A stretch of DNA of 23,847 nucleotides from a bacterium (lineage in GTDB: Bacteria > Fidelibacterota > Marinisomatia > Marinisomatales > UBA1611), in contig JAYPIC010000014.1 in the NCBI GenBank assembly GCA_038127595.1, positions 1 to 23,847 on the forward strand. Direction: 5' to 3'. Below are positions 1 to 6,000 of the stretch, one piece after another. Position numbers: made by a program. Within the stretch, counting starts at the first letter, position 1, and each line of letters starts with the position of its first letter.

Positions 1-3000
1 AACAAAGAATAAAACCAGACATCAAAAAATTACATATATCAAATAGGAGTTAATTATGAAAAAAAAATACTATGTGATACTAAATGCATTAATTGTGAAT
101 GCTACTATCTTTGCTCAGGGAGTTGACTTCCCATCTGAACCCGCTCAGGCACCAATCGGAGGATTAGGGCTCTTAGCGGCTGGAGGTGCAGCACTGGCAT
201 ATAAAAAATTAAGGAAAAAGTAAAAAAATCTATATTTAAAAGCCCCACATTCGTGGGGTTTTTTGTTTATGGCCTAAACGCACTGGTAATACACTGGTCA
301 TTTTATAAAGTGTAATTGTTCGTATATTAAATCAAGATTAGGAGCATAGGAATGATATTAAAAACAATATTAGGTATAGCACTATTCATTAGTGGTGGTC
401 ATATAGTAAGTACTAATTTGAAATTGCACCACTACAGCGATGATGATTTCAAAGATATTTTTTACCTTAAACACAATAAATCAATTACTAAGCATTGTGA
501 GAGGCATTCAGAATTGGAAGATATTAAAAAAAAGAAATCATATCATAATCAAGAACCAAACACAGTTTATAAAGTAACTAAACACAAGGACAAGGCTTCT
601 TAAAAAAATCTACCCAGAAGTCTTAACATAATACTAGAATAATTATAAAGAGCCCCACATTAGTGGGGTTTTTTGTTTGTGGAATGATGTTTTTTTCATT
701 TGGGGCTGGAGGGGCTTTTCATGCCCCAGATTCTACTATGAGTGAAAGCATGCGACAATTTGGTGGTGTTATGGGTAAAATATGTATAGCAGCAGGATTA
801 TTTTATGCAAGTCGTATCCTTCGAATAGGTCCAAAAGGTTTAAAATGGATCACTAAGACAGATGCAGGAAAACAATTTGAAAATGAAAAAATATTCAAGA
901 TGAAAATGCTACAAAAAAAATATCACAAAAAATCACAAATTAAAACAACAAAATGAAAGCTGTTATATGGAGAAAATACGGAGATACTAAAAAAGCATTA
1001 AGTGTTGAATCTGATATTGCAATCCCAGAAATAACAAAAGACAATCAAGTATTAGTCAAGATCGAATACGCAAGTTTACACCCAGGGGATGATCATATCA
1101 TGAGACCATTAATGTTTCCAATCCGATTTATGTTTGGTTTATTTTCTCCAAAAAATCGTGTTTTTGGAATGAATGGATCAGGAATTGTACACAAAGTTGG
1201 TGATAGTGTAACAGAGTACAAGGTTGGTGATAAGGTGTTTACTGATTCTATAGGTTTGGGTGCATTAAGTGAGTATCAACTTGTTACTGATAAAAGATGT
1301 TGCAAAATTCCAAGTCATATGAGTACAAAAGAAGCAGCAGCATTAGGAACATCGTCTAGTACTGCACAATACATTGTTGATTTATTGGATATTAAAGAGA
1401 ACCAAACAGTACTTGTAACCGGGGCATCTGGTGGTGTTGGATCATCATTGGTTATGTTATTCAATCAAGCTGGTGTTATTGTAACAGGAGTTGCATCTGG
1501 AAAACATGAAGAATCGATTCGAAAACTCGGTGCCAATGAGTTCATTGATTATAAAAAAACAGATTGGGCAAATGATGATAATAAGTATGACTACATTGTG
1601 GACTGTTATAATACATTGAATTCAAAGGGTATCAAAACAATGGTTGCAAAAAAAGAATCCATTTATTATCATATTGGTGGTAATGCCTTCATGTCAGCTG
1701 TGTGGGCATCCATTACAGATAAGAAGGTTAATTTGTTAACATATGATACAAATCATGAAACAATGAAGAATCTTGTTAAGAATCTTGAAAAAGATGAATT
1801 AAAAGTGCCAATTGCAAAGGAATTTGATTCGTTGGAAAAAGTATTTGATGCAATGGATTTCTTGATGAATTCTAATAAGTCGGTTTTAGGAAAACTCGTC
1901 ATAAAAGTTCAACAGTAAATATTGTGTGTACTCTATATATATATTTTAATTTAAAAAAATGAGAGAATAGATGCTTTATATGAAGAGTTACCTGATATAG
2001 ATAGTTTGACCAAATTCCAAAAGCAATTTCGGCCTTCTATAGATGCTAGGATAGATAAAATGCGAATCCAAATGACAATTGAAGAAAAGGCTTTAGATGA
2101 TTACTTAAACCAGATACCTATCGGAATTACGGACCTCGTGGACATGGTAAGACCATCCTTTAAGCGCATCTAATTTGTACTTAGCCCCACATTTGTGGGG
2201 TTTTTTGTTTGTGGCCTCACACACATTGTAGGGTAATTTTTTTGAGTTCTTTTTTAACTTTTTTAATATGTGCGTGTCTAAAGATTAACAACATAATGAA
2301 ATTTTGTTTCCATATATTATTAATCTTTTTCATTCCATTTTTTTCTTCCTGTGCTGAAGATGATGAGAACTTACAATATGAAACAGATGGTTATAAAATG
2401 GTATTGTTTGGACATAGTTTTTTTAGACCATATGCTGAAAAATTTAATGAAATTGCATTAGACGCTGGCTTTGATAATCATGATGGTGTGGTTATATCTC
2501 ATGGAGGGGAAACAGGAAGTCCTGTTAATCTGTGGAGTGATTCAACACTATCACAGCATAGATTAATTAAAGAAGAATTAAATAAGGGTGGTGTCGATGT
2601 ATTAGGCATGTCCGCTGACATATTACTTGAAAACCCAACAGATGGTTATAAAGATTGGATAGAATATGCTTTGACAAATAACCCTGATATAACAGTTTTT
2701 TTATCAATGATACCTCCAAGATATCCTGATGATTGGGACTCAATTTCAAATGCGTTAGGCTATGAATCAATGCAACATACATATGATAGTTTTCTCAATT
2801 TTAGAAAAGATAGTTTGGTAGATGTATTGCGTGCTGATTTTCCTGAAAATAATATTTTTTCTATACCTACGGGTCAAGCAACATTAACATTGTATGACTT
2901 ACAACGAGATAGCCTATTACTTGATGATATCTTATACAGAGGCAATAGAGAGTACTCTCTTTTTACTGATGAATTGGGACATCAAGGAGATATAATTATA

Positions 3001-6000
3001 AACACTGGTGCATTAATGTGGTTAGAAAGTATTTATAGTGTAGACCTTGATGAAAACGATTATGAGACAGGTTTTAATACAGACTTACACTCTATCGCTC
3101 AAGATATTCTTGATTCTTATAATCAGAATTAGAAATATATTACATAAATTTTATTCAGTCGTTAATCTCAACTTAATTAGACCCCACCAACCAATAAAGC
3201 ACGGGGGTAGGTATGTGTATATAATAGGCTCATACATTCGTGGGGTTTTTTGTTTTAAGTGGGAGCATTACACTCCCCCCATAATCCCTATAACACAAAG
3301 TCATCAATCTCCGTAGCAAGTAAAGGAGCATAATGACGCTCTGTTGTGGTCACAGATGAATGACCTAGTAGCTTGCTCACTTCATAGATAGGCCTGCCTT
3401 GTCTGATTAGATTGTAACCAAAGGTTCTCCTAAGGTCGTGGAACCTGATATCAGGGATACCAAGCCTTCTGGCTTCCTTCTTGAACTTGTGTGATACAAA
3501 GTCCTTGGTATAATCCCAGAGCTCATCAAGTCCATCCAATATCTCCTGAGCTTGGTTATTCAGTTTGATTAGTCTTTTACCACTTTTACCATATGCGACT
3601 ATATGATTGGAGAATATGTTTTCCCTCGATATAGAGCGTATTTCACCGCTTCTAGCACCAGTGTAGTAAGCGAATCTGACAAACAAATTGAAGCGGTTAT
3701 CTCTTATATTATCAAGCAGTGTCTTTAGTTCAGAATCACTTAGTACTCTGTTTCTGGACTCGCCTTTTGTATCACCTTCAAGCTTGTATGCCTTAGTGAT
3801 TAGACCTTGTTTTAAACCCCAATTCCAACAAATGTTAATCACTCTAGTATGTATTGCTTTCGTAGTTGGGTGAGCTGGCAGAGGTTTACCCGAGATGTAA
3901 GCTTTTAGTATTTGAGTATTGAGTTCTCTTGTTCTAGATGTCCAATCGTGTTTGGTGAAAAGATACCTATCCACAATTTCATCAAATGACAGGTTTCTTT
4001 TTCGAGTTTTTACTCCTGTCAGTTCTGCAAGCAATTCAAGCTCAACAACTGGTTTGAGCTTTTTAGCAACTTTCTTATCTTTCGTTCGAAGGCTTCTGGT
4101 AAGCCTTTGGTTATCATAGGATGTAGTGATGTACCATACACCACGGTTTTTATAGATTGTAGCCATAATTCCTCCAAATTATGACTGTTTTTGCTACATA
4201 TATACTTGCGTTACTTAGTTTTCCGACGGAGACACGCCAGATTTAGGATCTGGTGCACTTTGTGCGTGAAGGTTCGAGCCCTTTCCGCGGTACTTTAATT
4301 AAGCCTTTTTTCTTATAAAGAAATAAGGCTTTTTTATTTTGCTTATATCTTGACGAATGAATGGTGGAGATTTATAAATATAGCATAACAAAAATAATAA
4401 TCCCTGTTATTGAAACGTAAAGCCAAATAGGGAATGTAATTTTAGCAATTTTTTTGTGCTGCTGAATTTGTAAAACCATACCTCTGTAAACGCTTATCAT
4501 TGCTAAAGGCAAAATTGACATCGCTAATAGAATGTGAGTTAGGAGTACCGGATAATAAATGAAACCAAGCTCCCCTACATATGGTTTTGGTCCACTTTTA
4601 AACCAATGGTATACAACATAGCTGACTAAAAATAAAGCAGATGTGAAAAAAGCAGATAGCATAACACTTCGATGCTGCTCTCTCTTTTTTTGTCTAATTA
4701 AAACGTAGCCTGTAATCAATAATATTGTCGTCACTAAGTTTAAAAGCGCATTAACAAATGGTAAGCTTGATACATCTATCGACCCTTCAATCCCCTCAGG
4801 CCGAGGGCCAAGTATCAAAAATCCTACAGCTAAGCTTAACACAGCAGATAAAATATAGATAATCTTTAACCAGAAATTTTCTTTTTCCATAATCTTAACT
4901 ATTTAGATCTATAAAAATGACAATAAGGAGTGCAGGGAGATATATGACTGATGTTTTAAGTAGGAGTTTTGCATTATCAACAGTTGTGTCTTTCAGTAGA
5001 GGAATCCCTGATATGAGATATCCAAATCCCAGAGCAGATGCGCCCCAAAAGTAAATTTCACCTAATATGCCAGTTACAACAAAAAATAAGGATACCGGGA
5101 TGAGTAAAAAAGCATGCCACAATATTTGTCTATTTGTCCTATCGGGCTCATTTTCAATTACTGGGAGCATTTGGAATCCCGCTTTTTTATAGTCTTCTTT
5201 GCACATCAATGCTATTGCATAAAAATGAGGGTGCTGCCAAAGAAATAAAATTGAAAATAATATCCAAGCATTAGGATTTAATTCATTTGCAGATGCCGCC
5301 CACCCACCTAATGCTGGCATTGCTCCTGGTATAGCACCGATCGTTGTGTTCAACCATGTTATTTTTTTCAAAGGGGTGTAAACAAAAATATAAAGCAGTA
5401 CAGTGATTAGTCCTAAAGCTGCGGTAAGTTGGTTCACGAAAATAATTAATATTATTAGTCCAATAATTGATAAACAAAGCCCAAAAATAAGGGCATTTTT
5501 ACTTGATATAATTCCTGCTGGTATTGGCCTAGCTTGAGTTCTGTCCATTAATTTATCTAGGTCCTTTTCGACAAAGTGATTGATTGTTCCTGCTCCTCCA
5601 GATAATAGGAAGGTCCCAATCATTGTTAAAGCAAACAGGATAATATCCATTTCATTTTGGTTTCCAAGGTAGTAGCCCAAGGCTGTAGAAACTAAAATTA
5701 GAAAAGTGATTCTGGGCTTTGTTAGTTCAACAAATGCACTAAATTGGTTTTTAGCTGGTAAAGGTTTCCTCTTCAAACTGATTCTTTTTTAAGATTTTTG
5801 AGAAAGGAGTTAATGTGTGTTCTTAAAATAGAGATACTGCCATCATCAGTGCCGTTGTAATATTGCCTTACATCACCATTTTCGTCAATTAATACAAATT
5901 TTACAGAATGGCCAGCGGGTAAACTTTCTGACATGAACATAAACCCATCTGTGCTTAGTTTTTTTACTGATTCCATATCAGCTCTAAGAAATTTCCAACG

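Follow-up and report, generated by a model that had tools for sequence, protein, structure and literature searches.

The window analysed here comprises the first 23,847 nt of contig JAYPIC010000014.1 from a Marinisomatales (SAR406) genome. It opens with a row of small forward-strand genes punctuated by short repeats, which is bordered by a tyrosine integrase and a tRNA fragment (Table 1).

Table 1. Features at the left end of the window (positions in the window; z, folding score).
Feature	Position	Strand	Basis
Cassette gene, 55 aa, PID-CTERM-like C-terminal sorting signal	56..223	+	NF046080, below cut-off
Box A copy 1, predicted intrinsic-terminator hairpin and T-run, 21 nt 3′ of stop	244..268	+	z -3.1
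Box B, direct repeat of 11-bp period	280..300	+	Putative P′-type arm remnant
Cassette gene, 83 aa, no Pfam family	352..603	+	Profile search
Box A copy 2, predicted terminator	654..678	+	z -4.7
Cut-off start of common promoter-like tail (T1), fused into following ORF	679..689	+	Sequence
ORF, 90 aa, no family; may be a 5′-truncated gene	684..956	+	Sequence
NAD(P)H:quinone oxidoreductase / MDR-family dehydrogenase, 321 aa	953..1918	+	Profile match
ORF, 55 aa, no family, doubtful as a gene	2006..2173	+	Sequence
Box A copy 3, predicted terminator	2186..2210	+	Sequence and folding
Tail type 2 (T2) with box C, from promoter end of D/E/C element-end module	2211..2243	+	
Cassette gene, 278 aa, no family, lipoprotein-like N-terminus (by eye)	2296..3132	+	
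Stranded left-end module: box D (3177-3193) and G-rich box (3203-3218)	3163..3238	+	
3′ half of box A (chimeric copy 4), broken hairpin	3239..3255	+	z -0.9
Small hairpin 3′ of integrase stop	3261..3277	-	Folding z only -0.3
Tyrosine integrase, 292 aa, faces inward, catalytic motifs intact, not IntI	3288..4166	-	Profile and fold searches
Arm-type repeat pair of the 292-aa integrase, 11-bp period	4192..4209	.	By eye; putative function
attR, 78-bp exact repeat of tRNA-Leu(TAG) 3′ part	4230..4307	+	Intact gene is C10:4057-4140

The first 55-aa gene matches NF046080 with an E-value of 5.5e-5, its 22.9 bits lying below the cut-off of 26. The 83-aa gene recurs elsewhere in at least seven other left or right contexts. 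Besides ORF2 there are five accessory ORFs in the window; for four of them the fetched loci contain no close relative, and for the dehydrogenase only relatives of 26-33% identity. The -10-like end of the T2 tail is altered in the window. The left-end module is of a type found after tRNA-Lys, tRNA-Asp and tRNA-Val and is fused at position 3238 to the 3′ half of a box A via five shared bases, with loose ends at 3163, 3203 and 3238. An Rfam scan of the window gave terminator-like partial matches and the tRNA fragment only, none reaching the gathering score.

Positions 1-4307 belong to an element that has inserted in tRNA-Leu(TAG) and form its right end. The signs of this are a direct repeat of 78 bp, two relatives in which the site is empty, and an integrase of the lambda type that has arm repeats of its own. 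The partner of the direct repeat lies on contig C10 together with the matching left flank of the element. With regard to the empty sites, the same backbone gene adjoins an intact tRNA-Leu in genome G046, and a single gene lies between the two in G047. The attR contains a symmetric core with a 7-bp loop (4237-4253). The first-pass annotation of this DNA had described an array end beside the recombinase, with the tRNA-Leu fragment being overlooked. Its suggestion that box A is the target of this recombinase is not supported: the enzyme comes with a tRNA-Leu core of its own and with arm repeats, which it presumably binds.

The N-terminus of the integrase is composed of three strands plus a helix, its top fold match being full-length lambda integrase, while its score with the IntI profile TIGR02249 is 28.2 versus 265 bits. 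tRNA-derived sequence and an arm pair lie 5′ of all 11 integrase homologues having upstream DNA, and in close homologues the small hairpin and box A are retained together. The distribution of the enzyme is patchy (12 of 54 genomes), yet it is 88% identical across genera. A relative with 42% identity was identified in a viral collection, and relatives of 50-51% identity are situated directly at a P-arm in two contigs.

The repeats had been reported as nine copies of box A (at most four mismatches), three of box B and four of box C (at most three mismatches each) and two exact copies of box D in the genome, and all of these counts were reproduced. Box A is found at window positions 244, 654, 2186 and 3231, once in C29, three times in C50 and once in C10. 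Reversed control patterns returned no box A at four or fewer mismatches (one at five), no box B and no box C, and two 2-Mb order-3 Markov simulations each gave zero box A matches. Box D at three mismatches was no more frequent than its control (5 versus 4). The family-wide presence of box A was likewise confirmed, with 49 of 54 genomes and 15 of 15 genera positive at up to two mismatches, as many as 36 copies in a genome and none for the control.

The regularity claimed for the arrays was in part overstated. Box A does not follow each gene, as three ORFs lie between window copies 654 and 2186 and the C29 array has one box A in total; nor is it always 20-50 nt past the stop codon, the chimeric and unfolded 3231 copy (z -0.9) lying 99 nt 3′ of it. 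All 114 junction clusters are co-oriented, but 38 of 174 ORFs in the intervals (10 loci) are reversed, as is a 287-aa gene in C50. Units of exactly one gene make up 74 of 103 junction intervals. As for the partners of box A, boxes B and C do exist, but the commonest one, a promoter-like tail beside 97 of 201 box A copies, had gone unnoticed. The repeats are real, yet the system is not an integron.

On sequence grounds, box A is best described as the putative terminator half of a junction of about 55 bp, the remainder of which resembles a promoter. This second half is the most fixed part, and 7 of the order's 16 families have it. Of 298 tails, 133 have an ATG exactly 5 nt past the -10-like box; this ATG opens a frame of at least 45 codons in 95 cases and a short one in 38. 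The same 5-nt spacing is enriched before host genes (30 versus 14.5 expected in 782 genes, P 2.5e-4); significance is lost when the -10 pattern is relaxed (P 0.07). The Bacteroidetes-type promoter consensus TAnnTTTG was rejected as a description of the tail, since, although 44 of 122 tails match it, it forms no peak ahead of host genes. Variants of the box A stem keep their pairing. A phage origin of the junction was also rejected. In the viral collection, neither the promoter tail nor box B had an exact match. A 24-nt core of box A was found in five viral contigs, in four of which it is a tail-sheath terminator without promoter tail and in one part of a full junction close to the contig end.

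Fixed terminator/promoter junctions appear to format the genes, as the first-pass annotation had proposed, and its claim that genes change neighbours between strains also stands, the changes falling inside the junction. Up to -9 the alleles track the upstream gene, and from +16 onwards the downstream one, which leaves an exchange zone of 24 bp. Among junction pairs, 166 share the upstream side only, 48 the downstream side only and five both; these pairs are not independent, one family dominating the upstream side, and there are few informative alleles within the box, so that a fixed cut inside box A remains compatible with them. Two tRNA-Pro arrays of the same genus have 7 of 39 genes in common, in scrambled order. 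The 271 promoter-led genes belong to 228 families, and the cargo consists of enzymes, transporters and secreted proteins, 68 of 148 having no Pfam family. The covered parts of public sequencing runs yielded no single-gene circle and no empty junction; at every joint the short side (21-44 nt) is the repeat itself and too short to count.

Box B and boxes D and C are attachment-arm and end modules of tRNA-integrating elements, and the arrays do occur at tRNA and integrase sites, in agreement with the hot spots described earlier. The window box B appears to be a P′-type arm remnant of elements integrating at tRNA-Pro(TGG) or tRNA-Ser(GCT). Among 118 distinct metagenome P-arm contexts, the next feature is a tRNA-Pro fragment in 48, a tRNA-Ser fragment in 31 and neither in 24, with 15 being too short. 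A scan of genome contigs with the 16-nt P-arm gave mostly chance matches in other phyla; nine loci were kept and the rest were left uncounted. There are 25 units running from box B to P-arm, of 0.85-7.1 kb, eight of which carry a single gene. The many internal attP-like sites in the arrays of relatives are a mark of tandem integration. A small gene module lies 3′ of the intact tRNA, and the corresponding modules of relatives have excisionase/HTH and Arc-like matches only, with no match to a primase, helicase, terminase or capsid protein.

We favour, with a probability of roughly 0.65, a reading as tycheposon-like elements at tRNA genes. Homologous recombination between their PeSL-like junctions would shuffle the cargo genes, in the manner of T4-type phages. 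In a first layer, small elements with a lambda-type integrase would insert at tRNA genes by means of an anticodon-arm core and arms of 11-bp period, and repeated insertion at one tRNA would give tandem stacks in which most units lack the integrase while retaining both arms; because both arms are kept, such units could be mobilised in trans. In a second layer, the junction would terminate the upstream gene and then provide a host-type promoter, which may often start a leaderless message at the following ATG. Since all junctions are direct repeats, recombination between them through RecA or microhomology could delete, duplicate or swap single genes between neighbouring elements, and a gene landing behind a junction would be expressed immediately. 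Common signal-peptide heads and T9SS-type tails may act as extra in-frame exchange points. This stop-and-start framing probably lets unrelated genes be swapped singly without an integron. A recA gene is present in five of five genomes; 25-55 bp is a short homology for RecA.

The junctions could instead be passive relics, namely end modules of tandem elements retained as terminator and promoter, with neighbours changing through the integrase and unspecific deletion. We regard this as unlikely. Box A-like terminators do follow core tRNAs as well as the tRNA fragments of att arms, the point at which arms are trimmed varies, and the fusion at window position 3238 resembles a deletion via shared bases. 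However, there are long runs of junction, gene and junction without any tRNA fragment, and neighbour changes are concentrated in the 24-bp box. Furthermore, the junction hardly varies from family to family, whereas backbone identity is about 65% already between genera, a disparity that calls for continuing exchange or strong constraint.

Cassette genes are 70-98% identical across families, suggesting exchange over wide distances. Natural competence was rejected as a general route of transfer, ComEC being found in one of five genomes checked. More doubtful than passive relics is an order-wide cassette system independent of IntI, in which junction-framed genes would be cut out singly as circles and re-inserted by a dedicated activity, the integrase-less att units carrying them would be mobilised in trans, and secreted proteins would be combined by in-frame swapping of passenger domains between common signal-peptide heads and T9SS-type tails, with a gene pool extending across families.

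Less probable still is that the junction is the site of a dedicated recombinase, an integron analogue without IntI or attC that cuts out single-gene circles and puts them back, always crossing over at one point of box A or of its T-run. The strict polarity of the junction clusters, the narrow exchange zone, the conservation of the box A loop to the same degree as the stem within the family and the presence of box A past the stop codon of 7 of the 11 integrase homologues that have downstream DNA would all suit such an enzyme. Between families, though, both stem and loop change and the promoter stays constant. Left borders are scattered over 0-18 nt (420 copies), one window cassette having left breakpoints at seven positions, and exchanges are also located at box B, the P-arm and the -10 box. 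An attC site is a long imperfect palindrome with inverse core ends. In the largest upstream cluster, which has 46 junctions, a hairpin of about 70 nt with the tail is possible for some members, but an inverse of the tail lies upstream in 6 of 216 independent junctions versus 5.0 after shuffling, and pairing of the promoter tail within junctions is no higher than in shuffles. Scattered breakpoints and the lack of a general attC-like fold thus argue against the earlier view of box A as an attC-like site, and the cassettes, with their own promoter-like tails, differ from promoterless ones with a fixed crossover. The even-length loop of box A presumably could not give the 7-bp spacer of the tRNA cores. 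As regards known engines, IntI exceeds its cut-off in 4 of 54 genomes. One of the four has no box A, and at the two of the four loci inspected the neighbours are ordinary genes or a contig end, with no box A array. A Y1 (HUH) transposase (PF01797) likewise passes its cut-off in 4 of 54 genomes, none of which belongs to the genus of the window; this does not fit REP or IS200/IS605 elements, and a reverse transcriptase was found in none of five genomes.

Assembly artefacts at short repeats are highly improbable as the source of the changing gene order, for although many contigs end at boxes and a scaffold gap in C50 lies inside one, the repeats are shorter than the reads, the arrays lie on contigs of 29-360 kb, and separate assemblies (276-1397 and 1075-2904; the runs may be source samples) span window copies 2 and 3.

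The favoured combination of tRNA elements and recombining junctions offers a testable route to a very open accessory pool in an abundant uncultured marine lineage, one mostly without integrons, Y1-type transposases and, in most genomes checked, ComEC. It would mean that a mechanism described in phages also operates on a bacterial chromosome, here with the integrase and att arms identified. The junction could also serve as a primer site for SAR406 accessory genes in seawater, like attC primers for integrons. Nothing on these repeats was found in the Marinimicrobia/SAR406 literature searched, which covered few subscription papers.

Both layers have known counterparts, in tycheposon-like islands and phage PeSLs. 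Like the tycheposons of Prochlorococcus, the SAR406 elements carry an inward-facing, tRNA-specific tyrosine integrase at one end and a small gene module at the other, with the cargo in between, and like additive tRNA islands they form tandem elements with partial tRNAs between them (bioRxiv 10.1101/2020.12.28.424599). They differ in having cargo divided into junction-framed single genes and many att-to-att units without integrase; the words promoter and terminator are absent from the main text of that preprint. Integrons likewise have a very open gene pool and polar arrays in which the small genes are unrelated and mostly stand singly in their units. The SAR406 arrays, in contrast, have no IntI, no attC fold and no fixed crossover base, each gene appears to have its own promoter, and the integrase points at the tail of the array and serves a tRNA site. 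With PeSLs the junctions share a composite terminator-plus-promoter motif, with a conserved stem-loop, between small, variable and mostly unknown genes, which would be transcriptionally insulated, and gene gain, loss or replacement bordered at several positions inside this motif (Arbiol 2010, PMC2839356; Comeau 2014, PMC4122927). PeSLs have demonstrated promoter and terminator activity and mini-circles (PMC2839356; PMC4122927), whereas the SAR406 junctions are known from their sequence. Finally, PeSLs lie in the hyperplastic regions of T4-type phages, while the SAR406 junctions lie on a bacterial chromosome inside tRNA-integrated elements, are common to families of an order and often appear to give a leaderless start.

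Boxes A to D were reproduced at the positions and copy numbers given in the first-pass annotation, and boxes A, B and C lie far above chance by reversed controls and simulation. Box A, a 25-nt hairpin with a T-run, was found in 49 of the 54 family genomes, with no match for its reversed control. The three intact window copies fold into hairpins followed by a U-run (z between -2.1 and -4.7), and among 201 copies a fixed tail comes next in 97 and the box C tail in 24. Both tails terminate in a TAnnnT hexamer, with an ATG exactly 5 nt after it in 133 of 298 tails (95 of the 133 open at least 45 codons); before 782 host genes the same spacing is enriched for TAnnTT (30 observed vs 14.5, P 2.5e-4), while a looser pattern gave no enrichment (P 0.07). 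Judged from sequence, box A appears to be one half of a terminator-promoter junction of about 55 bp, the tail being the putative promoter. Across the order, 7 of the 16 families and 44 of the 151 genomes carry the tail with the T-run. It is also present on contigs as long as 57-360 kb, evidence against mis-binning. Other families have a different stem and loop, with the tail still 70-100% fixed at each position. The junction repeats are real and order-wide.

The proposed layout, a single gene to each box A, simplifies too far: 74 of 103 junction intervals do hold exactly one gene, but three ORFs lie between the window copies at 654 and 2186, and the array on contig C29 has a single box A. The same-strand arrangement stands for the junctions, with none of 114 clusters reversed, but not for the ORFs within junction intervals (38 of 174 reversed). 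The relatives' largest array begins behind tRNA-Pro(TGG), where contig C23 of this genome ends, so a further unassembled array probably follows there.

That genes get new neighbours at the junction, as had been proposed, is borne out by allele, family and array comparisons. Among 282 junctions, the pairs of which are not independent of each other, 166 pairs have the upstream side alone in common, 48 the downstream side alone and 5 both. Rare alleles go with the upstream gene as far as -9, and from +16 onward they go with the downstream gene; since they switch partner between these points, box A appears to be the exchange zone. Grouping the 271 promoter-led genes gives 228 families, and left contexts differ in 15 of the 27 multi-member families; the window's 83-aa cassette gene has at least seven other contexts, and two tRNA-Pro arrays of one genus have 7 of 39 genes in common, in scrambled order and with duplicates. 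Nine cross-family gene pairs, several on short contigs with possible mis-binning, have a DNA identity of 70-98%; backbone DNA compared between genera has about 65%. In a relative (L249, G011:C2) the 83-aa gene has a 5'-truncated copy, joined to box C via six shared bases.

As to cargo, 45 of the 228 families have a 42-nt 5' head in common with another family, where an internal control window gives 12; a T9SS-type tail is common to 17, and 134 pass a crude rule for secreted proteins. Of the 148 families run against Pfam, 68 matched no Pfam family, 13 had a Por secretion tail and none a recombinase.

Boxes B, C and D are parts of elements. Within arrays, fragments of tRNA-Pro or tRNA-Ser stand some 100 nt ahead of box B and are themselves preceded by a second repeat, the P-arm, having the same 8-bp unit; this succession looks like the arm-core-arm layout expected between tandemly integrated elements. 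At least 118 distinct P-arm contexts occur among the metagenome matches listed, with tRNA-Pro next in 48, tRNA-Ser in 31, neither in 24 and 15 too short. Also among the matches listed are 25 units bounded by box B and the P-arm that comes next (0.85-7.1 kb, a single gene in 8), with no match to three integrase seeds; on two contigs a relative of the window integrase (50-51% identical) sits directly at the P-arm, with the same divergent arrangement. Another element type, placed after tRNA-Asp, -Lys, -Val and -Pro, has a left end made up of box D, a G-rich box and box C. The window's piece of this module is nearly identical to the tRNA-Lys end of the relative G043 and is joined to the 3' half of box A via five shared bases; at the fusion point, other contigs, from two public runs, run on into box C. 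Hybrid tRNA fragments at three loci probably arose when att sites belonging to different elements recombined.

Coordinates of the features discussed (window positions unless a locus or contig is named)
Position	Feature	Remark
352-603	cassette gene	83 aa
3163-3238	piece of the D/G-rich/C module	
3288-4166 (-)	tyrosine integrase	292 aa
4230-4307	exact 78-bp repeat	3' part of tRNA-Leu(TAG) in contig C10
4372-22536	backbone cluster	cytochrome c oxidase, Rieske/cytochrome b and cytochrome c genes, read from translations
G000:C23:1-165	contig end in this genome	6 nt behind tRNA-Pro(TGG)
L199:1501-2385	tRNA-Asp integrase	G033:C2
L052:7230-7305	complete junction	near end of viral contig
L034:3473; L235:8591; L509	hybrid tRNA fragments	tRNA-Pro anticodon arm with another tRNA's 3' end

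Window positions 1-4307 form the right end of an element integrated in tRNA-Leu(TAG). In the empty site of the relative G046 the intact tRNA directly adjoins the backbone gene that follows window position 4372; in that of G047 one gene separates the two, and the gene preceding this site is the one upstream of tRNA-Leu(TAG) in C10. Behind the intact tRNA of C10 stands a three-gene module, present also in a complete tRNA-Asp element of G033, which terminates in the same integrase as the window's; C10 and the window's contig C14, with no contig bridging them, would be the two ends of a single island. The cytochrome cluster of G042 and G020 has the integrase and tRNA-Leu fragment at its opposite end.

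The predicted model of the window integrase (pLDDT 85) begins with three strands and a helix, presumably an arm-binding domain, and has full-length lambda integrase as its best structural match. Of the 54 genomes, 12 have homologues of it, with 88% identity across genera, and tRNA-derived sequence and an 11-bp-period repeat were seen by eye upstream of all 11 homologues that have upstream DNA. Because the integrase has this target of its own, it does not need box A, and an action of the neighbouring recombinase on that box is not supported. In its catalytic half the tRNA-Asp integrase of G033 is almost identical to the window enzyme, but its N-terminal half has diverged; the pair suggests a target change through domain exchange.

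We favour, with a probability of about 0.65, a reading in which tandem tRNA integration builds the arrays and recombination at the junctions, homologous or by microhomology, reshuffles their genes. Arrays would grow by tandem site-specific integration at tRNAs, and directly repeated junctions would recombine, with deletion, duplication and swapping of genes. The recA gene is present in all five genomes checked; counted against this reading are the shortness of the repeats, a possible fixed cut inside box A, and the contigs of public runs, which showed no circle or empty junction among joints with short sides of 21-44 nt. The junctions might instead be passive relics of element ends, and we hold this doubtful beside the new gene neighbours found at them. 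A dedicated recombinase acting at box A, for example through a fixed cut inside the exchange zone, is improbable; left borders are scattered over 0-18 nt (420 copies), exchanges also fall within box B, the P-arm and the -10 box, and the breakpoints appear to have no fixed position. That the gene order is an assembly artefact is very improbable indeed.

On large phage contigs (L051, L053-L055) a tail-sheath-like gene, identified as such by eye, is closed by a terminator that matches the 24-nt box A core exactly; the contigs may come from phages of this lineage, or the match may be due to chance. The junction on L052 may be a captured cassette or mark a chimeric contig. True IntI-type integrases occur in 4 of 54 genomes (L041-L044, in G030, G031, G022 and G020); behind that of G031 come short tandem repeats, together with a Y1 transposase-like gene.

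The integron-like nature first proposed did not hold, the arrays having failed the tests on IntI score (28 for the window integrase, cut-off 265), IntI survey and attC-like fold; unlike integrons, they have no IntI-type integrase at the window and no general attC-like fold. Among the papers listed, literature searches showed no description of these repeats, and a term search of PMC9618062 no mention of Marinimicrobia or SAR406. In the portions of PMC2839356 and PMC4122927 consulted, the PeSLs of T4-type phages work as the junction does, and in architecture the arrays are like the tycheposon islands in the main text of a preprint (bioRxiv 10.1101/2020.12.28.424599), the supplements of which hold gene profiles and elements of other bacteria that may bear on membership. 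The arrays are a new combination joining these two known kinds, PeSL-like and tycheposon-like, with the integrase layer resolved.
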